Positions 6,203 to 31,122 of a DNA stretch of 31,122 nucleotides are shown in pieces. Position numbers and translations under genes: made by a program. The notes beneath the pieces are model-generated. The model worked only from the letters and a program-made list of their open reading frames with translations, did not search any database and had not been told where the DNA came from. Source of the DNA: a virus; the IMG/VR virus record IMGVR_UViG_3300045988_093071, positions 1 to 31,122 of that record. One strand, written 5' to 3'. How positions within the stretch are numbered: the stretch's first letter is position 1; each line of letters opens with the position of its first letter.

Positions 6203-6252
6203 TGTCAGTTTTTATTTTTTCTTAGTACTTTGAGTGAGTAAAAAACTTGACA
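6203..6252. repeat. 50-nt palindromic element, copy D (TGTCAGTTTTT ... AAAAACTTGACA)
   Basis: It starts 1 nt after the stop codon. It has the same 50-nt length and architecture as the copies at 14164, 19289 and 27872. Both arms carry the same changes relative to the other copies (TGTAAC becomes TGTCA(A)G). Confidence 0.8.
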
Positions 6253-6278
6253 TTAAAGGAGGCTTAGGTCTCCTTTAA
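6253..6278 (+). terminator. Intrinsic terminator hairpin
   Basis: TTAAAGGAG-gcttaggt-CTCCTTTAA is a 9-bp stem followed by a T-rich tract (ttattttaat). It ends the fibre/LRR operon. Confidence 0.7.
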
Positions 6279-6354
6279 TTATTTTAATACATTAGTAAAT
6301 TAGTTTATATTTTAAGAAAAAGATATGTAAAACTAATGTAAATTGCTGTAAAAT

Positions 6355-9098: not shown

Positions 9099-9524
9099 AT
9101 GACCTACTATGAGATAATTAGCAATTTAAAAGCTTGTGCATTAGAAGAGCCAAACATCAATTTTGTAGGAAGTAAAGACATTTATGAGTTAAATAGCTTA
9201 CCAACTATTGAGTATAATGTGTTCTATATAACACCTAATACTTTTAGTGTAGATGAAGATACTATTACTTACTCTTTAAACCTATACTTCGTATCAAGAT
9301 GGGATGAGACTGATAACAACCAATTGGAGGAACAGTCAGCAGGTATGCTTGCACTGCAAAATATAATTAATCGTTTTAATAACCTATATCCAGAAGTTGA
9401 AATAGCTTATCCTTTAATTTATACTCCATTCTATCAAAAGTTCAAAGATATTACCTGTGGAGTGTTTGTTAGAGCTGATTTCCAAGTTGACAACACATTA
9501 GGCTTATGTCAAGACAGTATGTAG
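9099..9524 (+). CDS. Hypothetical virion protein (141 aa)
   Basis: Intact ORF ending in TAG, tightly coupled to the upstream gene. Confidence 0.45.
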   Translation: MTYYEIISNLKACALEEPNINFVGSKDIYELNSLPTIEYNVFYITPNTFSVDEDTITYSLNLYFVSRWDETDNNQLEEQSAGMLALQNIINRFNNLYPEVEIAYPLIYTPFYQKFKDITCGVFVRADFQVDNTLGLCQDSM

Positions 9525-10090
9525 TTTATATTCATACTTTTCCAAATGGGAAAAGATATGTTGGATTGACTACTCAATCAGTAAATAGTAGATGAAGAGG
9601 TGGAGAAGGATATAAAGATCAATTTGTTTATAAACCAATTAAAAAGTACGGTTGAAACAATATTAAACACACTATTTATTATGTAAATAGTGAATCAGAA
9701 ATGAAATATCTTGAAAAATACTTCTTTAGCTATTATAATACTACAGATTTAAGATTTGGTTATAATAGAACTGACACAAGTAATCATCCTATAGTTTCTA
9801 ATGAAACTAAAGTTATTATTTCTGAATTTGCTAAAACTAGAATAGGAAATAAAAATCCATTTTATGGTAAGCATCATTCGGAAGAAACTAAGGAATTAAT
9901 ACGCAAGAAAAATCAAAACTATGGAACTAAAGCTATTAGTCAATACACTTTAGATGGAAGATTTATAAAATCTTATAAAAGTATAAGATCAGCAGCAAGA
10001 GAGTTAAACATAACTTCTTCTTTAATATCTTCAGTTTTAAGTGGTAGGCAAAAACAAACTAAAGGATATACCTTTAAGTATAATATGTAA
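9506..10090 (+). CDS. Free-standing GIY-YIG homing endonuclease 2 (194 aa). In-frame TGAs at 9593 and 9653.
   Basis: It reads MSRQYVVYIHTFPNGKRYVGLTTQSVNSRWRGGEGY...KKYGWNNIKH, followed by NUMOD3-like repeats and a C-terminal AARELNITSSLISSVLSG helix-turn-helix. The start overlaps the upstream gene by 19 nt. Confidence 0.85.
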
Positions 10091-11933: not shown

Positions 11934-11943
11934 TAAAAAAGAA

Positions 11944-11969
11944 AAGGAGGGCAAATAACCCTCCTTTTT
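11944..11969. terminator. Bidirectional intrinsic terminator between convergent operons
   Basis: AAGGAGGG-caaataa-CCCTCCTT is flanked by an A-run upstream and a T-run downstream. Confidence 0.8.
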
Positions 11970-11971
11970 GT

Positions 11972-12112
11972 TTATTCCATTATCTCAAATAATTTCTCAT
12001 CTTTAGGTATTAATTCTCCAGTTTGTAAATCTACTAAGAATTTACTATTTTCAGGAATTACATAAACGTAATTTATTCCATTTAAGCATAATTTATATGT
12101 AAAGTACTTCAT
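11972..12112 (-). CDS. Micro-ORF (46 aa), hypothetical
   Basis: It reads MKYFTYKLCLNGINYVYVIPENSKFLVDLQTGELIPKDEKLFEIME. It abuts the terminator and is the last gene of the leftward operon. Confidence 0.4.
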   Translation of the reverse strand: MKYFTYKLCLNGINYVYVIPENSKFLVDLQTGELIPKDEKLFEIME

Positions 12113-12113
12113 A

Positions 12114-12248
12114 TTAGTCAATATATGTTGCGTTAGGAATCTCTGGTTTTTCTTCTACTTCTTCCCAAACTAACCCTTTGTTTTGGTTTTCTAATTGAAC
12201 TATTCTATATTCTAGTTCTTTAAGCTTTTTAAATAAAAAATCATCCAT
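12114..12248 (-). CDS. Micro-ORF (44 aa), hypothetical coiled-coil peptide
   Basis: It reads MDDFLFKKLKELEYRIVQLENQNKGLVWEEVEEKPEIPNATYID. It is packed with 1-2 nt spacers to its neighbours. Confidence 0.4.
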   Translation of the reverse strand: MDDFLFKKLKELEYRIVQLENQNKGLVWEEVEEKPEIPNATYID

Positions 12249-12250
12249 AA

Positions 12251-12463
12251 TTAATCAAATTTTGAAATAAATGTAAAATCTCTTTGTGCTAATACTCTAT
12301 CTATAATATCTCCTAATTTCTTAGAATTCTCTTTAAATTCATTCATTCACTTATCAAACTCTTTAATAGTATCTTCTGACTTTTTAAGAGTTTCTTTAAT
12401 ATCCGCAATTCTATTTAAATATGAATCTTGGTCTAATAATAATGTATCCTTTGCTTCTAACAT
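12251..12463 (-). CDS. Small ORF (70 aa), hypothetical. In-frame TGA (plus-strand tca at 12347-12349).
   Basis: It reads MLEAKDTLLLDQDSYLNRIADIKETLKKSEDTIKEFDKWMNEFKENSKKLGDIIDRVLAQRDFTFISKFD. The start overlaps the helicase 3' end. Confidence 0.4.
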
Positions 12464-14129
12464 CCTTTTCAGTTTTAGTTGATTTTCTAACTTCAAAATA
12501 GTGTTCAATATCTGTTGCCTTTGCAGTTTTCTTTATACCTAAAGTCTTATATACATCAGCAATCCTATTCTTTAATAAAGCTAAATTGTAGAACATACCA
12601 TTCTGAATATCTCTTGTAAGTAATTTGGCAACCTTATTTGGCATATTTTTATCTGATATTTTAACAAGTTCCTCTTTAATATCTTTAATGCAATAACCCA
12701 AAGTTGCCATTCTTTCAAATCCCAGTTTATTAATTGCATCATTTAACCAAGGATATTTAATTAGAGCTTCATTTAATATAGGAGTTCCAACTTTAAATTT
12801 AGTTTCCCATTCAGCTCTTACATCTTTAATAAGCTCCTGAAATGACTTACTAGGAGCTTCAAGGTCTATCTTAATAGATTTATCTTCACATTCAGCAACC
12901 TTTATAAAGCCATTCTTTAGATATTCATTAGTAAGATTAACTCTTACAGAGTATAAACCTCTTGCAACCTTAAAATTGAATATATCTACTTTAGCCATAT
13001 TTGGGTCAAATTCAAAGGTATAATCCTCATTAATTTGAATATATGTGTCACTTGTAAAGTCTGTAATCTTCTTACGAGCTACTTCTGGAAGCTGATTGTA
13101 TGATTCAACTGCAATCTTTGTTTCTTCAATATTCTTTAATGTATTATTTTTAAATGTATCATAATCTATCTCTGCATATCTTGTGGCTGAATAAAGATGA
13201 GTAATCCAATTTAAATATTTACTATTTCTAATTCTACCAGCAATCTGTTGAATTGAAGTAGATATATCTAAAAGAGTCTGAGCTTTAGAGGAATCACTAA
13301 CTACAATAATTCTTCCATTTTCATCATAAATATCAGAACCTTCAAATACAGTAGAAGTCAATAAATTAATCTTCTTAGGTTCATCATTTACTGAAGAATT
13401 CTGAATTGGCAGTTTAGTTCTATTATTCTTAGAATATACTACTCTTGTGTTATCTGCTGTAAGTTTAGCCTTTAAAATAAGATTCTTTATAAAGTCAACA
13501 GAGTTAACAAATATATAAGCATTACCTTCAACATTTCCACTTAAAAATCCATTTATAAGCTTAATTGTGGAAGCTTCTACATTCTTGCATTTAACAGTCT
13601 GAACTTTAGTCTCAATAACATCATCCCATTCTTGTCTTACTAATGGCAATTTAGACAATTCATCTAAAACAAATTCATCTTCTAAGGGAGTAGCAGTCAT
13701 AAATGTATATTCTTTAAATAAGCTATATGTCTTTAATACATCTTTAATTGCGTCTCTTCTAAGACTATATTGATTAAATAGTATATGATATTCATCAATT
13801 AATAGGCTATAATCTTTAGGATTTACTGCTTCTATTACTTTATAAAGAGAATTATAAGTAACAATGATTTTAGGGCATTTAACTGAAGATATATAAGCTT
13901 CAATATCTGTCTTAGTAACACCTTGATAAACTCCAAAAATAGGCTCTTTACGTCTTTCATTAGGATATTGAGCAAGTTTATTCTCAACTAAACTTACAAA
14001 TGGAACACATATAACATAAGGCTTATCACACTCTAAAGCCATTGAAGTTCCACCACATCCTACTTTACCTTTGTCAAATAAGCAGTTAGTAGGTAATTCA
14101 TTGATTAAATTATTTAAATAAGTTTTCAT
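12411..14129 (-). CDS. SF2 (DEAD/DEAH-like) helicase with a C-terminal domain of unknown function (572 aa)
   Basis: Walker A is DKGKVGCGGTS, Walker B / motif II is LLIDEYH, motif III is MTATP, and motif VI is QQIAGRIRN. There is no in-frame TGA. Confidence 0.8.
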   Translation of the reverse strand: MKTYLNNLINELPTNCLFDKGKVGCGGTSMALECDKPYVICVPFVSLVENKLAQYPNERRKEPIFGVYQGVTKTDIEAYISSVKCPKIIVTYNSLYKVIEAVNPKDYSLLIDEYHILFNQYSLRRDAIKDVLKTYSLFKEYTFMTATPLEDEFVLDELSKLPLVRQEWDDVIETKVQTVKCKNVEASTIKLINGFLSGNVEGNAYIFVNSVDFIKNLILKAKLTADNTRVVYSKNNRTKLPIQNSSVNDEPKKINLLTSTVFEGSDIYDENGRIIVVSDSSKAQTLLDISTSIQQIAGRIRNSKYLNWITHLYSATRYAEIDYDTFKNNTLKNIEETKIAVESYNQLPEVARKKITDFTSDTYIQINEDYTFEFDPNMAKVDIFNFKVARGLYSVRVNLTNEYLKNGFIKVAECEDKSIKIDLEAPSKSFQELIKDVRAEWETKFKVGTPILNEALIKYPWLNDAINKLGFERMATLGYCIKDIKEELVKISDKNMPNKVAKLLTRDIQNGMFYNLALLKNRIADVYKTLGIKKTAKATDIEHYFEVRKSTKTEKDVRSKGYIIIRPRFIFK

Positions 14130-14163
14130 AATAGTAATTTTTAATAAGTTAATAAATTTTATA

Positions 14164-14213
14164 TGTAACTTTTTTTATTTATCTTACTACAAAATATTAG
14201 TAAAAAAGTTACA
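14164..14213. repeat. 50-nt palindromic element, copy A (TGTAACTTTTTT ... AAAAAAGTTACA, 12-bp perfect stem)
   Basis: It lies 35 nt upstream of the helicase ATG, inside the predicted helicase leader. The architecture matches the other three copies. Confidence 0.8.
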
Positions 14214-14231
14214 GTAAAGGTTAAAATTAAA

Positions 14232-14248
14232 CTGGGAATTAATCCCAG
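14232..14248. promoter_or_regulatory. GC-rich hairpin CTGGGA-attaa-TCCCAG with T/A-rich flanks (possible attenuator in the helicase leader)
   Basis: Perfect 6-bp stem. On the minus strand it is followed by TTTAATTTTAA. Confidence 0.45.
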
Positions 14249-14287
14249 CTCAATTTTCAATATGGAAGTAGTTTTAGTTTGATAGTA

Positions 14288-14319
14288 CAAAGATAATACA
14301 TAAAATTTCAATTTCCAAA
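14288..14319 (-). promoter_or_regulatory. Bacteroidota-type promoter P-left-1 (TTTG-N20-TATCTTTG on the minus strand)
   Basis: On the plus strand, CAAAGATA at 14288-14295 and CAAA at 14316-14319 are separated by exactly 20 nt. This matches the -33 TTTG / -7 TAnnTTTG consensus. Confidence 0.6.
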
Positions 14320-14376
14320 TATTTTTGCAATTATTTTTAATAAATTTTTTATTTATTATCTCTTACTTTCATAGTA

Positions 14377-14408
14377 CAAATATACAACATTATTTTTAAA
14401 TCTCCAAA
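14377..14408 (-). promoter_or_regulatory. Bacteroidota-type promoter P-left-2 (TTTG-N20-TATATTTG on the minus strand)
   Basis: On the plus strand, CAAATATA at 14377-14384 and CAAA at 14405-14408 have a 20-nt spacer. It lies 89 bp from P-left-1 within an imperfect direct repeat. Confidence 0.6.
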
Positions 14409-14456
14409 TATTTTTATGAAAAATTTTAAATTTTTTTTGAAAAAGTTGTTAAAAAA

Positions 14457-14488
14457 TTTGGAGATTGGATAAAAATGTATTATCTTTG
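14457..14488 (+). promoter_or_regulatory. Bacteroidota-type promoter P-right (TTTG-N20-TATCTTTG) for the rightward early operon
   Basis: TTTG at 14457-14460 and TATCTTTG at 14481-14488 have a 20-nt spacer, 46 nt upstream of ATG 14534. Its -33 context ATTTGGAGA is the inverted copy of the one in P-left-2. Confidence 0.65.
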
Positions 14489-14533
14489 TATTACAATAAA
14501 AGACATAATATTAACAATTAAACTTTATAAATT

Positions 14534-14773
14534 ATGAAAAATATATTTAAATATGCAATTATTGCAACGATTATTTTAATGGGAATAGCTGGTATTAGAG
14601 TATATAATGCTTATGGAGACTACCAAACTAAAACATTTGAGCTTAGATTAGAACAGGCAGAACTCCAGCATAAATTAGACTCTGTAATGTGGCATAATCC
14701 TGGAAGTTCAGAAGTATCTGAATTATATGAACAGTATTGTGATGTAACCTTAAAAATTCATAATGTAAGATAA
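14534..14773 (+). CDS. Small membrane protein (79 aa), hypothetical early gene
   Basis: Intact ORF with an N-terminal TM segment (YAIIATIILMGIAGI). Confidence 0.5.
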   Translation: MKNIFKYAIIATIILMGIAGIRVYNAYGDYQTKTFELRLEQAELQHKLDSVMWHNPGSSEVSELYEQYCDVTLKIHNVR

Positions 14774-15210
14774 TGAAAACAGATATAAGAAGCTTAGTCT
14801 TTATAAAGAATCTATTTAAAGATAAATATAATATAGAAATAGAATGATGTAAAGACGATTATTCCAGATATGATGGAACATTTACTTGGAATAATATAGA
14901 TTATATAATTGAAGTTAAAAGGAGAAGATTTAAATCCGATAAATATCCAACTACAATTATAAATAGGGATAAGTTTGATATACTTAGTAAATGTAACTCT
15001 ATATTAGTCATTATATTTGATGATGGAGTTTATATTTATAAAGATGTAAAAAGAGCTTTTATTAAAGATTCAATGAAATATGGAAGAAGTACAACTGATT
15101 TTGGAGGAGAATATAAATACTCTTTAAAAACAGAGTTATCTTTAAAGAAAGCAATTAAATTAGAAATAGACACAACTTTTAGTAATTATATAAGAAATGA
15201 CGACATATAA
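14773..15210 (+). CDS. PD-(D/E)XK-like nuclease-fold protein (145 aa). In-frame TGA at 14845.
   Basis: The ATG overlaps the upstream stop (TAATG). It reads ..IEWCKDDYSRYDGTFTWNNIDYIIEVKRRRF.., giving a D...E-V-K catalytic-type motif. It is missed by the ORF track because of the TGA. Confidence 0.4.
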
Positions 15211-15688
15211 GGCAATACCTGGATATGAAAACTATTTAATAGGAACTGACGGTTCGGTCTGGAGTACTAGAACCTCAGTTCCGAAAAATATCAAACCTCA
15301 ACTCCAAAATAGTGGATATTATTATGTTACTTTATATAATCAGTTTGGGCAAAAGAAATATCTAATACATAGACTAGTGGCAGAAGTTTTCATAGGTAAA
15401 AGTGACTTATGTATTAACCATAAGGATGAAAATAAGCTAAATAATAACTTAGATAATTTAGAGTACTGTACTTATGAATATAACAATAATTATGGCAGTC
15501 ATAATATTAAAGTAGGAATTTCTCATAAGAAAGCAATTAGACAGCTATCATTAGATGGAAGTTTGATTAAGAGATGAGATTCCGCAATAGATGCTGAACG
15601 GGGACTTAATATACAATCCAGAAACATTGTAAAAGTTCTTAAAGGTCAGCGAAAAACAGCTGGAGGGTTTATTTGGGAATATGAATAA
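15197..15688 (+). CDS. Free-standing HNH homing endonuclease (NUMOD4 + HNH_3-like, 163 aa). In-frame TGA at 15575.
   Basis: It has YKAIPGYENYLIGTDGSVWS (NUMOD4-like), HRLVAEVFIG...INHKDENKLNNNLDNLE (HNH), and a C-terminal AIDAERGLNIQSRNIVKVLKG helix-turn-helix after the TGA. Confidence 0.8.
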
Positions 15689-15989
15689 CAATGAAATAAT
15701 AGAGAAATACTATCCGTTTATTATGGAGTTAAAAGAAAAATTTGGTGCAGATGACGATTGCACACAAATGGTCTGCATTGCACTTCTAGAAACATCTAAT
15801 TCCAAGCTTCAGTCATTAGATAGTAAGAATGAGCTGAAGTATTGGATTACAAGAGTATTTAAGAATAATTGGTTTTCTAAGAATAGTAGATACTATTACC
15901 AATATAAAAAGTACTATGAAATATTTAAAGAGCCATTAGAACAACAAACGGATAATTTAGAGGATTGGTTAAATGAAGCAGAAGATTAA
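15681..15989 (+). CDS. Sigma-70 region-2-like protein (102 aa), N-terminal piece of a two-piece sigma-like factor
   Basis: The pattern IIEKYYPFIMELKEKFGADDDCTQMVCIALLE...LKYWITRVFKNNWFSKNSRYY matches the ECF-type region 2 layout (..y.p.i......g...d.d..Q.v...l......W..ri..N...d..R). Confidence 0.5.
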   Translation: MNNNEIIEKYYPFIMELKEKFGADDDCTQMVCIALLETSNSKLQSLDSKNELKYWITRVFKNNWFSKNSRYYYQYKKYYEIFKEPLEQQTDNLEDWLNEAED

Positions 15990-17254: not shown

Positions 17255-18485
17255 AGGATATAGCCCATTTATCTATCAATTAAAGGTACATACTGCTATG
17301 AATGACTCATATAGGTCTGGTAAAATCTTTACAATTAAAGCAAAGAGACAGGTAGGTAAATCGTTCTTGGCAGAAAATGAATTATTGAGATTCGCTATAA
17401 ATTATCCTGGGAGTGTTAATTGTATAGTTGAACCAACTCTTGGACAATCTAGAAAGGTATTTAAAGAACTTGTACAAGCTGTTATAGACTCTGATATATT
17501 AAGGAGAAAGAATGAAACCTTATTAGAATTAGAGTTTAATAATGGCAGTTCTATACTATTTAGATCTGGGGAACAAATGGATTCATTACGAGGATTCTCC
17601 GTTAGTGGATTATTAGTACTTGATGAGGCAGCTTATCTTAAAGATGAAGTATTTGAAATTATTAAGCCTACCACTGATGTATGGAATGCTCCAATACTTA
17701 TAATTAGTACTCCAAGGTTTAGAGAAGGATTCTTTTATGAATGTTTTAAAAAAGGCTTTGATGGCAATTTTAGCAAATATTATCAATCCTTTGATTGAGC
17801 ATTAGAAGATACCTCTATGCTATTGAGTGAGGATAAACTTGAAATGTATCGCCTTACAACCTCCAAAAATAAATTTAGAACTGAATATCTTGGGGAGTTT
17901 GCAGATGATGATGGTTGTCTCTTTAATAATATATCTAACTGCATAATTGATAAAAAACCTGAATATCATAATCTTTATATTGGAGTTGACTGGGCTACTG
18001 GTTCTGGTAAAGACTATACTTGTATTACAGCTTTAAATGAAAATGGGCAGATGGTCTTTATAAAGTATTTTAACGACAAAACTCCAACAGAACAAGTTGA
18101 TTTACTGACAAATATATTTACTGAGTATCAGGGATTTATAAAGATAGTTCAAGTCGAACAAAACTCAATAGGTTCAGTGTTTTATGATATTCTTGTAAAA
18201 AGGAATTCTAAATTACGGATAGTTAAGTTTTTAACTACTAATAAGTCTAAAGCAGCTATTGTAAATAAGCTACAAGCTGCATTAGAAAACGAAAAGATTG
18301 GTATTTTAAAGGATGATAAACTATTAAATGAATTAAGACTATATGAAGCCAGTTATAATCCAAAGACTGGAAATGTATCATATAATGCTCCATCTGGATT
18401 TAATGATGATACTTGTATATCTTTAATGTTAGCTTATGATGCTTTAAATACAAATAAAGGAACTTATAATATTGCAATTAAATAA
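17238..18485 (+). CDS. terL: Terminase large subunit (415 aa; alternative start at 17202). In-frame TGA at 17796.
   Basis: Walker A is KAKRQVGKS and Walker B is GLLVLDEAAY. The RNaseH-like nuclease half (IGVDWATGSGKDYTCI...FNDDTCISL) lies beyond the TGA. Track ORFs 17202..17798 and 17817..18485 share a frame. Confidence 0.9.
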
Positions 18486-19288: not shown

Positions 19289-19338
19289 TGTAACCTTTTT
19301 ACTCATATTTGGTACTAAGATAATATAAAAAAGTTACA
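19289..19338. repeat. 50-nt palindromic element, copy C
   Basis: TGTAACCTTTTTA ... TAAAAAAGTTACA starts 1 nt after the -1-frame stop codon. Confidence 0.8.
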
Positions 19339-19366
19339 AGGGAGTAAAAATCTCCCTTGCTTTTTG
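19337..19366 (+). terminator. Intrinsic terminator
   Basis: CAAGGGAG-taaaaat-CTCCCTTG is an 8-bp stem followed by CTTTTTG. Confidence 0.8.
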
Positions 19367-25545: not shown

Positions 25546-27861
25546 ATGGCTGAAGAAATTAAAAAGGTAATAGATATAGATACTACTAAAAGTACAAAGT
25601 CAATCAAGCAGCTACGAGAACAAGTAGCTGGCTTGACTGACGAACTTGAATCATTGGAAATTGGTAGTTCTGACTATTCCAAAAAACTTGAAGAGCTTGT
25701 AAGTGCACAAAACAAGCTTAATGTAGCTACTGAATCTATGCAAGGTAAGACTGTAAATGCAGTTAAAGCTTTTGATAGTATTAACCAAGTAGCTGGCGGT
25801 CTTGCAGGTGGAGTTTCGGCTGTAAGTGCTGCATTTACTTTATTTGGAAGAGATACAGAGAATCTCCAGAAAACTATGGTTAAGCTTCAAGCAGCTATTG
25901 CTATAGTTCAAGGAATTGGAGGATTAAAGGGTTTAGGTGAAGGTGTTCTTAATGGAGTAAAATCATTTAAGGCTTTATCTGTTGCGATGGCTGGTGCTAC
26001 GACTGCTACTGGAGGTTTATCTGTTGCGATGGGAGTGCTACGAACTGCTATTATATCAACAGGTATTGGAGCATTAGTAGTAGCATTAGGAATGTTAGTA
26101 GACTTTGCAATCAAAGCAGCATCTGGAGTTGATGATTTAAAAATTAGTATTTCAGGGTTAAAAGACATAACAGACCAATGAGGAACTAGCTATGCACAAG
26201 CTAATACAGAAATTGCAGGATTAGAAAGACAGAGAGAAAGAGATTTAGCTGAAGGTAAAAAGAATGAAATACAAATCTGAAAGGATTATGCTCAAGCATT
26301 AGGTGAATTAGATGCTAAATTATTCCAGCAATTTGGAAGTGTAACTAAAGCATATAATGATTCATTTACAGATATACTTAAGAGTAATAAATACTTCAGA
26401 AAAGAGTTTAAGAAATCTGGATATGACACTTGGGAGGAGTATTCACAAGCTATACAATGAGGATTAAAAACTAGTTCTAATGAAGTTGATTTCTTTTTAA
26501 GTAAGTTAAATGATGATCAAAGAGCTGCTTACGACGAAGCTTCTGGTATCTACAATGCATATATAGAGAAGAGAAATAGTTTAATGCAGAAAACTTCAGA
26601 AACTTATGAAAAGATTAAACTGATGGAAATCTCTGCAGAGCGTAAAGCCAGAGAAGAGGCTAAGGCTAACTATCTAAAGAATATTGAAGATGCAAAGAAA
26701 CGTAACGCTGATTTACTGAAGGTTATCAATGATTTCTATGAAGAGAATAGAAAACTGCTATTAGATGATGAAGCTAGAGAGTTAGATGAATTAAATACCA
26801 AATATCAAAATCAATTAGATGCTCTTAAAACAGCTAAAGATAAAGAGCTTATAACAGTTGAGGAATATAGAAAGAGATTAAAGCAAATAAATGATGCTTA
26901 TGATAAAGAGTATCTAGACAATCAGAACGAGCGGTATCGTAAAGAAATTAATAATAGAATTAATTCTTTAGAACAACTTAGAGAACGAGAGAATAGATTT
27001 TTTGATCAAAGGCAATCTGAGTTAGATACTAAATATAATAAGACATATACACATAATGCAGGTCTTGGAAACGAATACAAGACTGCGGGAGATATAAAGA
27101 GTGAAAAGAACGATAGAATAACACAATCTAATGAGCTACTTGAAATACAGTTAGGATTCTACGAAAGAGATAATAAAAGAATTGGAGAATTACAAACCAC
27201 TTTAAAAGAATCGTTTGATAATGGCTTAATAACTCAAGAAGAGTATAATAATGAGTATGCAAGATTAAATGCAGAAAGAGAAGCAAATGATACTGCTGCT
27301 GCAAATGCTATTGTAGCTAATGGAGAAAAAATAAAGGCTGCTAAAAAAGATGAAATTAAAGACATTGTAGCTGCTGTTCAAGGAAGTTTTGCTGCATTAG
27401 GAAGTTTAGGTGATGCTGTAGCTCAAAACTATAAATTTGAGGCAAATAATTCCAAGAAGTCATTAAAGGAGAGAGAAAAAGCTATGGAAAATTATAAGTC
27501 TATAGCTAAAATATCTACCGTATTTAATACCGCTTCTGCAGCAATGAATGCTTATAACTCTATGGCAGGAATTCCAGTAGTAGGTCCTGTATTAGGTGGT
27601 ATTGCTGCTGCTGCAGCTATTGCTATGGGATTACTTCAAATTAAAAATATTGAAAATGAAGAAATATCTGGTAGTGATGTATCATCTTCAGTATCCGCTC
27701 CATCTGCACTTACACAAGCTCCTGTTGAGTATACTCGAAATTTACTTGGAAATAAAGAGACTGATGAACTTAATAATCCAGTTAAGTGTTATGTTGTTGA
27801 ATCTGATATTACTTCAGCTCAAACTAAGGTAGCAGTTACTGAATCTAATGCTTCATTCTAG
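25546..27861 (+). CDS. Tape-measure-like protein (771 aa; coiled coils plus Gly/Ala-rich hydrophobic segments). In-frame TGAs at 26179, 26278 and 26458.
   Basis: Track ORFs 25546..26181 and 26584..27861 share a frame with no TAA/TAG in the 400-nt linker. Features are long heptad-like segments, GGLAGGVSAVSAAFTLFG and IPVVGPVLGGIAAAAAIAMGLL hydrophobic blocks, and a TAG stop. Confidence 0.5.
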
Positions 27862-27871
27862 AAATGTTTAA

Positions 27872-27921
27872 TGTAACTTTTTTATTCTTATTAACTACAA
27901 AATATGAGTAAAAAGGTTACA
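27872..27921. repeat. 50-nt palindromic element, copy B
   Basis: TGTAACTTTTTTA ... TAAAAAGGTTACA lies 10 nt after the TAG stop. Its loop is nearly identical to that of copy A (CTACAAAATAT[TG]AG). Confidence 0.8.
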
Positions 27922-27973: not shown

Positions 27974-28567
27974 ATGGAAATTACTTATAATGATCTTCCA
28001 TTATTTCAGGCAGTGATTACTGATGATTGTGATGGAATAGAATATGTTGCTTTAACAAGCAAACCAGCTACACAAGTTAACTGGGTTGCTTTTAGTAATT
28101 CTCAGAAGTTCTCGATGGATGAAGATAAGCATTTAGTAACATCTTGCTTAATGTTAAGTGATACTCCAATTTTCAGACGAGATGAGAAACTCGGAGAATA
28201 CTACATACAGTATGATAAGGAAACTCTTCGTAAAATGGCAGAGAAGATGCTGTATGATAAGAGAACTACAGATGTAAATATTGAACATTTAGAAGATTCT
28301 GATTTAAATGGAATTACTCTACAAGAAATCTATGTAAAGGATATTAATAGAGGAATATCTCCAGTTGAATTCCAGGATGTTCCTGATGGTTCTTTATTTG
28401 CCACTTATAAAGTAGATAATCAAGTTATTTGAGATGCAATTAAAGCTGGTAAGTTTAAAGGGTTCTCAATTGAAGGTTTATTTACTTTAGAGAGAAAGTC
28501 TGATGAATATGACGAAATAAAAGAGATCCTTAATATGATTAAGAAGATAAAAAGAGTTAAACATTAA
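27974..28567 (+). CDS. XkdF-like prohead protease candidate (197 aa). In-frame TGA at 28430.
   Basis: The N-terminus reads ..GIEYVALTSKPATQVNWVAF.. After the TGA it reads ..VIWDAIKAGKFKGFSIEGLF.., the W..[IV]K.G...G.S[IV].G block typical of the PBSX XkdF family. It lies upstream of the scaffold and capsid genes. Confidence 0.6.
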
Positions 28568-30674: not shown

Positions 30675-30683
30675 CAACAGAAG

Positions 30684-30718
30684 AGGGGCGAGTATTAATT
30701 TACTTGCCCCTTATTTTG
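30684..30718 (+). terminator. Intrinsic terminator after the capsid/tube operon
   Basis: GGGGCGAGTA-ttaatt-TACTTGCCCC is a 10-bp stem with one G-T pair, followed by TTATTTTGTTT. Confidence 0.8.
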
Positions 30719-30757: not shown

Positions 30758-31122
30758 ATGGCTATTAAATATACAACACCAGAAGTGGCAAAGAATACAA
30801 CTTCAAGAGATATTGAAGCTTTAGCTGCTCAAGAATGTAAATTACAGGAGAAGTCTGTAGAATATACTCAGAATGCTGAGTTCGTTGTAACTCCAGATGA
30901 GGGTTATGATGGTATGTCGAAAGTAAATGTATCTGTTGATGTTGTTGTTCCTACAGTACAAGCTACTAAAGAGATTACAATTACATCTAACGGATTAATA
31001 GATATTTTACCTGATCCAGATTATGATGTTATGGAGAAGGTTTCTGCACAAATAAATGTTCCAGTACCAACTCCTACTTTACAAGAGAAACATATAACAA
31101 TAGATAAAAACCTATCAATGAC
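30758..31122 (+). CDS. 5' part of LRR protein copy 1 (continues at nt 56 -> 878 through the circular junction)
   Basis: ATG 30758 follows the 18-nt conserved start context. The frame is open to the window end and in phase with nt 3 onward at the start of the window. Confidence 0.8.
   Translation, partial: MAIKYTTPEVAKNTTSRDIEALAAQECKLQEKSVEYTQNAEFVVTPDEGYDGMSKVNVSVDVVVPTVQATKEITITSNGLIDILPDPDYDVMEKVSAQINVPVPTPTLQEKHITIDKNLSM
31068..31122. repeat. Terminal overlap, second copy (identical to 1-55)
   Basis: Exact identity to the first 55 nt of the window. Confidence 0.95.

Follow-up and report, generated by a model that had tools for sequence, protein, structure and literature searches.

The 31,122-nucleotide virus record IMGVR_UViG_3300045988_093071, analysed here over its full length and referred to below as the window, is the complete, circularly assembled genome (~31 kb) of an uncultured tailed phage. 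Within it, a gap of 404 nucleotides (nt) at 14130-14533, hereafter the hub, separates the leftward gene for an SF2 ATPase (the "helicase") from the first gene of a long rightward array. Judged by sequence comparison, the hub appears to be a real and conserved early-promoter region of a known Bacteroidota type, in which two tandem leftward promoters and one rightward promoter are accompanied by a conserved terminator-like hairpin in the helicase leader. On balance, we think it probable that the gap is the entry point of the host RNA polymerase, with Bacteroidota promoters and a terminator-like leader hairpin, and that the host is most likely a member of the Bacteroidota.

The preliminary description of this DNA reported three exact matches to TTTG-N20-TAnnTTTG in the hub, and all the coordinates and strings that it quoted were verified in the sequence. 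On the minus strand, the putative proximal leftward promoter, P_L1 (14288-14319), consists of a -33 TTTG (14316-14319), a 20-nt spacer and the -7 element CAAAGATA (14288-14295), the module being written TTTG-N20-TATCTTTG. The putative distal leftward promoter, P_L2 (14377-14408, minus strand), has its -33 TTTG at 14405-14408 and, after a spacer of the same length, the -7 element CAAATATA at 14377-14384 (TTTG-N20-TATATTTG). The putative rightward promoter, P_R (14457-14488, plus strand), combines a -33 TTTG at 14457-14460 with a 20-nt spacer and the -7 element TATCTTTG at 14481-14488. All three are oriented toward the flanking genes. The Bacteroidota -7 consensus has been refined to TAHHTTTG, with transcription starting 4-5 nt past the -7 box (PMC6847099). 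The -7 boxes TATCTTTG, TATATTTG and TATCTTTG agree with both TAnnTTTG and TAHHTTTG, their two variable positions being TC, TA and TC and never containing G, and the spacer of 20 nt in all three falls within the ~19-21 nt by which the -33 TTTG is expected to precede the -7 element. Applying the 4-5-nt rule of PMC6847099 gives predicted starts at ~14283 for P_L1, ~14372 for P_L2 and ~14493 for P_R, and hence leaders of ~154 nt and ~243 nt on the helicase side and of ~41 nt ahead of a gene encoding 79 amino acids.

Three exact matches in 31,122 bases compare with 0.23 expected, and none of 100 dinucleotide shuffles of the window reached three. Because the gap is very AT-rich (16.6% guanine plus cytosine (GC), the lowest-GC stretch of the window), the 404-nt region was also shuffled alone: the mean was 0.008 matches, and two or more occurred in 0 of 20,000 shuffles. 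Neither the whole-window nor the local shuffles, a control that the preliminary description had proposed, ever gave three matches. The three are copies of one another and are therefore not independent events. Relaxing the spacer to 17-23 nt yielded no further match in the window; allowing one mismatch gave 32 matches against 23 +/- 5 in Markov simulations, with nothing convincing outside the region. TAnnTTTG by itself is not enriched in the window (44 found, 45.6 expected).

The promoters were said to be built from repeated modules, and this is borne out by direct and inverted copies in the hub itself and by cassette recombination among relatives (see below). The direct repeat spaced by 89 bp comprises 14274-14349 and 14363-14438 (76 nt, 74% identity), and the inverted copy pairs 14372-14414 with the P_R module at 14451-14493 (43 nt, 79% complementary). 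A 16-nt inverted repeat flanking the promoter region (14271-14286 and 14619-14634, 15 of 16 positions matching) was considered as the signal of an invertible promoter and set aside: its right copy is coding sequence of the 79-amino-acid gene, which explains its conservation, so that it is probably not an inversion site.

Comparison with relatives strongly supports the prediction of Bacteroidota-type promoters. The SF2 protein has hundreds of homologues, many of them on contigs of ~31 kb, and about 30 related loci were retrieved. The motifs are retained in about 30 related contigs despite spacer turnover. In relatives with a 70-73% identical helicase, two exact motifs directed at the helicase and one divergent motif stand at the same positions, while the 20-nt spacers differ at about half of their positions; the two tandem leftward promoters and the one divergent promoter are thus retained, as the preliminary description had suggested checking. 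At P_L1, the -33 and -7 columns are invariant and the spacers variable in 13 aligned relatives, and this alignment was not selected for the motif. Many relatives have the distal promoter swapped for a cassette with a 19-nt spacer, TTTGCAGAATAAAAATTTATTATTATATTTG, that keeps both boxes. Where the divergent promoter seemed to be absent, it was found ~550 nt farther away, past an inserted gene. Across ~200 kb of family DNA, exact motifs are confined to the hub and, in one subgroup, to the 3' end of the helicase gene. A distant clade (42% helicase identity) has a single promoter of this kind, 480-580 nt ahead of its helicase gene.

The hub is also mosaic. Promoter cassettes (14288-14533) and the leader-plus-helicase block (14130-14287) assort independently among relatives: in L003 (99% helicase identity) the leader is identical and the P_L1 box matches at only 22 of 32 positions, and in L016 and L032 (70-73% helicase identity) all three boxes match at 30 of 32 and the leader has diverged. 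The recombination breakpoint lies at the P_L1 -7 box. Apart from its AT-richness, the sequence from P_L2 to P_R is not conserved among relatives. Two observations concern relatives only. In L009-L017, an extra consensus promoter at position ~4705 overlaps the helicase stop codon and is aimed at small downstream open reading frames (ORFs). In L031, the stretch upstream of the leftward promoters holds a helicase-sense ORF of 98 amino acids (2279-2575), which matches MUG113 weakly; coding-like sequence at the same place suggests that several other relatives share it.

The second conserved component of the hub is the leader hairpin. The preliminary description placed a terminator-like stem-loop at 14232-14248, and CTGGGA-ATTAA-TCCCAG is indeed present there, followed on the minus strand by TTTAATTTTAA. 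The feature as a whole spans 14221-14257 (minus strand), with the core stem-loop at 14232-14248 and, at 14231-14221, the tail UUUAAUUUUAA; the fold of lowest energy has an upstream A-tract paired with the U-tract, which extends the stem to 14257. As RNA, it reads CUGGGA-UUAAU-UCCCAG followed by UUUAAUUUUAA, that is, a stem-loop and U-tract of the kind that defines an intrinsic terminator, ~35 nt downstream of the predicted P_L1 start. From that start to the helicase ATG, the leader RNA folds into two hairpins at -30.9 kcal/mol (z = -5.2 against shuffles). The claim of a structured helicase leader is strengthened by the family, where a GC hairpin with a T-run on the helicase-sense strand was found in 15 of the 15 distinct leaders examined. 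Some relatives have an alternative stem in the same slot, GGCAGG-N7-CCTGCC followed by ACTTTTT. The consensus fold keeps six of six pairs, three of which are changed on both sides, with one variant pairing via G-U; this covariation amounts essentially to one swap between two hairpin types. Five relatives (L013, L020, L022, L023 and L027) carry small inserted ORFs in the interval from the proximal promoter to the hairpin, and the hairpin stands directly past their stop codons. In this placement it behaves like an intrinsic terminator. Between hairpin and helicase ATG there is no exact promoter motif, nor any good partial match by eye, and the helicase therefore appears to depend on read-through.

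We then considered how such read-through might be controlled. The preliminary description proposed attenuation or antitermination, with an element upstream of the helicase ATG (copy A, see below) taking part. Of this proposal, the terminator-like hairpin stands; the switch itself found no backing. Constrained folding of three leader types gave no competing antiterminator fold: with the 3' arm blocked, the best alternatives reach -0.4 to -3.0 kcal/mol, against -11.3 to -19.4 kcal/mol for the terminator forms. Rfam returned nothing at the gathering score for the whole window, and at E up to 5 the region gave only a chance-level microRNA match (E = 1.1). The leader contains no credible leader peptide, its sole ORF being a mechanical frame whose TTG start codon lies upstream of the P_L1 start. 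In the absence of an antiterminator fold, an Rfam family or a leader peptide, a classical RNA-switch attenuator is not supported, and element A is not specific to the helicase. The reading that remains is a putative terminator with fixed or factor-controlled read-through.

Together, these features suggest the following scheme. RNA polymerase of the host, with the primary sigma factor of the Bacteroidota (sigma-ABfr type), would initiate at the three -33/-7 promoters, P_R (start ~14493) driving the long rightward gene array and the tandem pair P_L2 and P_L1 (starts ~14372 and ~14283) driving the leftward unit. Leftward transcripts would meet the hairpin and U-tract (14248-14221) ~35 nt past the P_L1 start, where the structure would act as an intrinsic terminator, so that most leftward RNAs would end there with lengths of ~55-60 nt from P_L1 and ~150 nt from P_L2. 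Read-through RNA alone would extend into the SF2 ATPase gene and the small ORFs that follow, and the hairpin would hold helicase expression well below promoter strength. The level of read-through would be fixed or set by a trans-acting factor rather than by an RNA switch. In relatives, the same hairpin would close the small extra genes inserted between promoter and hairpin.

The assignment of a host has to take account of the genetic code of the phage. A terminase that appears split under the standard code is one frame of 427 amino acids with an in-frame TGA; examples of such codons are found at 17796-17798, 14845, 19996 and 23123. Reading through TGA joins the rightward ORFs into contiguous frames, with TAA or TAG as the stop of every gene, and the codons of relatives aligned to in-frame TGA are TGA (282), TGG (67), other aromatic codons (18) and GGN (3). 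These contiguous ORFs, stop codons and aligned codons indicate that TGA encodes tryptophan (code 4); as TGA is a sense codon, the standard-code ORF list fragments many genes. No suppressor tRNA was detected in the window. Code-4 gut phages include small clades of ~34 kb (Borges et al., bioRxiv 10.1101/2021.08.26.457843); the hosts reported for recoded gut phages are Bacteroidetes and Firmicutes that use the standard code, and a suppressor tRNA is detectable in only 35% of code-4 phages (same source). The present phage resembles them in its in-frame TGA aligned with TGG or TGA, its low GC content and its TAA and TAG stops, and, like the ~65% of reported code-4 phages, it has no suppressor tRNA that we could find. 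Unlike them, its leftward unit has no in-frame TGA (it contains only five tryptophan codons, so the difference is not significant), and in-frame TGA occurs as early as the second rightward gene. Recoding slightly complicates the inference of a host, yet fits the known recoded gut phages. Among genomes, homologues of the helicase come mostly from Bacteroidota and Chlorobiota. A loose Shine-Dalgarno-like 4-mer precedes only 8 of 40 starts, which fits a Bacteroidota host, since Bacteroidota mRNAs are reported to lack Shine-Dalgarno sequences (PMC6847099).

Several points weigh against the proposal of Bacteroidota promoters followed by a terminator. The motifs, their rarity and conservation, the covariation of the hairpin and the copy number of the palindrome (see below) are shown, whereas transcript ends, promoter activity, termination, read-through and host phylum are predictions from these. 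With six pairs in the stem and a broken U-tract, the hairpin may be a weak terminator or none. A terminator placed immediately after strong tandem promoters would be an odd design unless the short RNA has a role of its own. The leader layout is not conserved in relatives whose helicase is at most 50% identical. The closest genomic helicase homologue (50% identity) lies on a 22-kb contig binned as "Bacillales", and TGA read as tryptophan without a detectable suppressor tRNA could point to a natively code-4 host outside the Bacteroidota.

The most serious alternative, which we regard as possible but unlikely, accepts the promoters and reinterprets the hairpin as a signal for RNA stability or processing, or as a protein-binding or cruciform DNA site, with the helicase expressed from full-length transcripts. 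The short stem and the broken U-tract in the window would suit it, as would the symmetry of an A-tract before and a T-tract after the stem, which gives a structure on either strand; the GC hairpins found beside the palindrome elsewhere (see below) suggest a composite module with some other role. In relatives, however, the T-run lies 3' of the stem on the helicase-sense strand only, the hairpin stands directly 3' of inserted small ORFs, where a terminator is expected, and the hairpins that adjoin the palindrome at other sites are good terminators.

Because TGA is read as tryptophan without a suppressor tRNA, we also considered a natively code-4, low-GC host of the Mollicutes-like Bacilli. In such a host, the modules would be sigma-70/sigma-A promoters, TTGGAA-N17-TAT(C/A)TT, and the Bacteroidota match would be coincidental. 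TTGGAA-N17-TATCTT is a passable sigma-70 promoter (8 of 12 positions), and TGA means tryptophan throughout and never stop, no tRNA was found, the genome has 30% GC with few Shine-Dalgarno-like sequences, and the best genomic helicase match sits in the "Bacillales" bin. Against this, agreement with the specified Bacteroidota positions is 12 of 12 in the three promoters and also in dozens of diverged copies from relatives. These positions include two parts that a sigma-70 promoter does not need, the initial T of TTTG and the closing TTG of the -7 box. The hexamer that would serve as the -35 element never agrees with TTGACA in its ACA half. A scan of the window for sigma-70-type sites showed no excess (25 found, 32.8 expected), most genomic homologues are from Bacteroidota, and reports exist of recoded gut phages with standard-code hosts and of a suppressor tRNA in only 35% of code-4 phages (bioRxiv 10.1101/2021.08.26.457843). 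We consider such a host improbable.

The reading of the hub as a replication origin brings in the SF2 protein and the palindrome in the helicase leader. The SF2 ATPase gene (12411-14129, minus strand, 572 amino acids) is the first gene of the leftward unit and its single long one. Its translation contains the motifs GKVGCGGTS (Walker A), DEYH and TAT. The protein has no sequence match in Pfam, PHROG, NCBIfam or PDB, and weak Helicase_C_2 matches appear in 6 of 17 homologues. An AlphaFold model (predicted local distance difference test (pLDDT) 82) gives Foldseek probability 1.0 to DEAD-box, Snf2, Mfd and PriA proteins, and its neighbours in a viral structure library include SF2 helicases of large DNA viruses named "replication origin-binding protein". 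A separate model of the C-terminal 228 residues (pLDDT 81) has no significant PDB match (best E = 0.28) and only weak winged-helix-like hints, and NCBIfam and Pfam give nothing for this part. By its predicted fold, the protein would thus be an orphan SF2 ATPase with two RecA domains. Of the earlier labels "helicase" and "replication gene", the SF2 fold holds, on motifs and model; a role in replication we can only infer, and it is consistent with the fact that no other replication gene was recognised in the window.

The element called copy A exists as a 50-nt palindrome at 14164-14213 (minus strand; TGTAAC-T6, 26 nt, A6-GTTACA), and 34 nt separate it from the helicase ATG downstream of it. Searched with a covariance model of 16 variants from the family, the window yields four strong copies and no more, in both orientations, copy A scoring 61 bits (E = 7e-13). 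Copy B (19289-19338, plus strand) directly abuts the intrinsic terminator at 19337-19359; copy C (27872-27921, minus strand) lies in the gap between a gene ending at 27861 and one starting at 27974; and copy D (6203-6252, minus strand), with arms TGTCAAG...CTGACA, directly abuts the terminator at 6252-6279. Across the 16 variants the arms co-vary (CG/AU, AU/UA, CG/AU/GC), and the stem is therefore under selection. The arms differ between copies within one genome. Concerted evolution of the copies, expected for one sequence-specific binding protein, was considered and rejected, contig 134784 having TGTCAA arms at A and TGTAAC at B. Outside the phage family, 588 kb of sequence gave one marginal match. 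The palindromes thus look like generic punctuation, usually beside terminators, and not like a helicase-specific regulator. Extragenic palindromic repeats of the REP/BIME kind, and the RNase III sites of T7, which are intergenic RNA-processing hairpins, are similar in having several intergenic copies in both orientations, often beside terminators, with compensating stem changes. The phage element differs from these in its 50-nt unit with a conserved 26-nt AT-rich loop and in its restriction to this phage family, and no transposase was seen.

The preliminary description regarded the region as the best candidate for the origin. Beyond the AT-richness of the gap and its adjacency to the SF2 gene, the sequence speaks neither for nor against this; the GC skew reverses only together with gene orientation and is uninformative for origin mapping, and the direct repeats are the promoter copies themselves. 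A region serving mainly as a transcription-activated or transcription-primed origin, with short transcripts from the tandem promoters ending at the hairpin beside the AT-rich palindrome and the SF2 protein binding or unwinding that palindrome, would be in keeping with the lowest-GC stretch of the window lying beside the only candidate replication gene, with the "origin-binding" names among the structural matches and with the selection acting on the palindrome stem. It would also have known counterparts. At the primary origin of T7, the tandem promoters phi1.1A and phi1.1B are followed by an AT-rich stretch, and in herpesvirus oriS and oriL, palindromes lie between divergent promoters and UL9 is an SF2 origin-binding helicase. 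The hub shares with these the tandem promoters beside an AT-rich palindrome and the adjoining SF2 protein with "origin-binding" helicases among its viral structural neighbours; it differs in that its palindrome is present in four dispersed copies rather than one, with arms that differ within one genome and do not co-vary between copies, and in that the C-terminal domain has no significant match to a DNA-binding fold. We hold a primary function as an origin to be improbable. Rather less credible still is the fuller proposal that tandem promoters, terminator and palindrome together form a transcription-primed origin bound by a UL9-like SF2 helicase, the three other palindrome copies being further origins or places where the helicase enters, in a TGA-recoded phage with neither a polymerase nor a primase gene.

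Finally, it is very improbable that the modules are iterons or operators for a phage protein that resemble promoters by chance: they do form direct and inverted repeats and are conserved beyond both boxes (ATTTGGA..., ...TGTnnTATnTTTGTAnTAT), but the columns that never vary coincide exactly with the positions of the promoter consensus, at the right spacing, non-identical cassettes keep only those, every module is aimed at a gene, and the P_L2-P_R interval is conserved in AT-richness only.

The proposed Bacteroidota promoters have known equivalents. Sigma-ABfr promoters (-33 TTTG and -7 TAnnTTTG, including the phage-derived P_BfP1E6) agree with each hub promoter at 12 of 12 positions, and hub and family share with them spacers of 19-20 nt, the lack of G at the variable -7 positions and AT-rich surroundings. 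A strong constitutive Bacteroides-phage promoter is already a standard tool, so strong Bacteroides phage promoters are known and in use. Unlike these examples, the hub is a shuffled family of cassettes that are the only consensus promoters in their genome, and its start sites, activity and host are predicted ones. In phage lambda, the early promoters pL and pR diverge, and the terminators tL1 and tR1 stand ahead of delayed-early and replication genes. The hub resembles lambda in having divergent early promoters in one short region and a putative terminator between promoter and replication-type gene, where read-through would decide expression. It differs in that its leftward promoter is duplicated in tandem, that no repressor, operators, N-like protein or nut-like site was identified and that no lysogeny genes were seen.

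The hub is thus an ordinary kind of control region and overturns nothing in current understanding. Its value is first as a sequence-based clue to the host phylum of an uncultured, TGA-recoded family of ~31-kb phages without a cultured relative, in which host-type transcription appears to enter the genome at a single 400-bp site. The naturally shuffled consensus promoter cassettes are possible expression tools in Bacteroidota. The conserved terminator-like hairpin, placed as it is after strong tandem promoters and ahead of the only replication-type gene, poses a small, testable puzzle as to the mechanism of read-through.

The rest of the genome is laid out as follows. Positions 1-55 and 31068-31122 of the record are identical, and this exact 55-bp terminal overlap implies a circular assembly of ~31,067 bp. 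A tail protein, an M15 peptidase, portal, terminase and capsid-like proteins and homing endonucleases were recognised among the genes of the window; polymerase, primase, integrase and tRNA were not found in its 31,122 bases. A nucleotide search against a phage collection gave no match, and the large subunit of the terminase shares no more than 27% identity with that of any phage in the collection searched. Behind the SF2 gene, the leftward unit continues on the minus strand (11941-12346) with small ORFs at 12346-12251, 12248-12114 and 12121-11972 and ends at a two-way terminator (11941-11969). The first rightward gene (14534-14773, plus strand) encodes the 79-amino-acid protein, which has a hydrophobic N-terminus and is kept, at the same length, in relatives. 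Two HNH/NUMOD-type homing endonuclease genes (9506-10090 and 15197-15688) lie inside the rightward array, and the sets of such genes differ among relatives. An early rightward ORF of 102 amino acids (15681-15989) resembles sigma-factor region 2 by eye and was considered as a small sigma-like factor; the idea is unsupported, its best PDB profile match being an ECF sigma factor at E = 1.3 and its hhalign probability against E. coli RpoE (approximate query sequence) 0.2%. Homologues of this ORF are confined to the phage family.

The rightward array is punctuated by four strong intrinsic terminators (6252-6279, 11941-11969, 19337-19359 and 30683-30712) yet has one consensus promoter; the terminator at 11941-11969 is bidirectional and closes the leftward unit too. 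A further motif, TATATTTTAWARAAAA, occurs eight times with up to two mismatches against 2.5 expected, mostly directly 5' of start codons, with plus-strand positions at 6306, 16545, 19391, 23892, 27959 and 30743. Three of the copies come after terminators, and the one past the 19337 terminator is retained in relatives whose terminator sequence is different. It could represent promoters of a second class or serve as a signal in translation.

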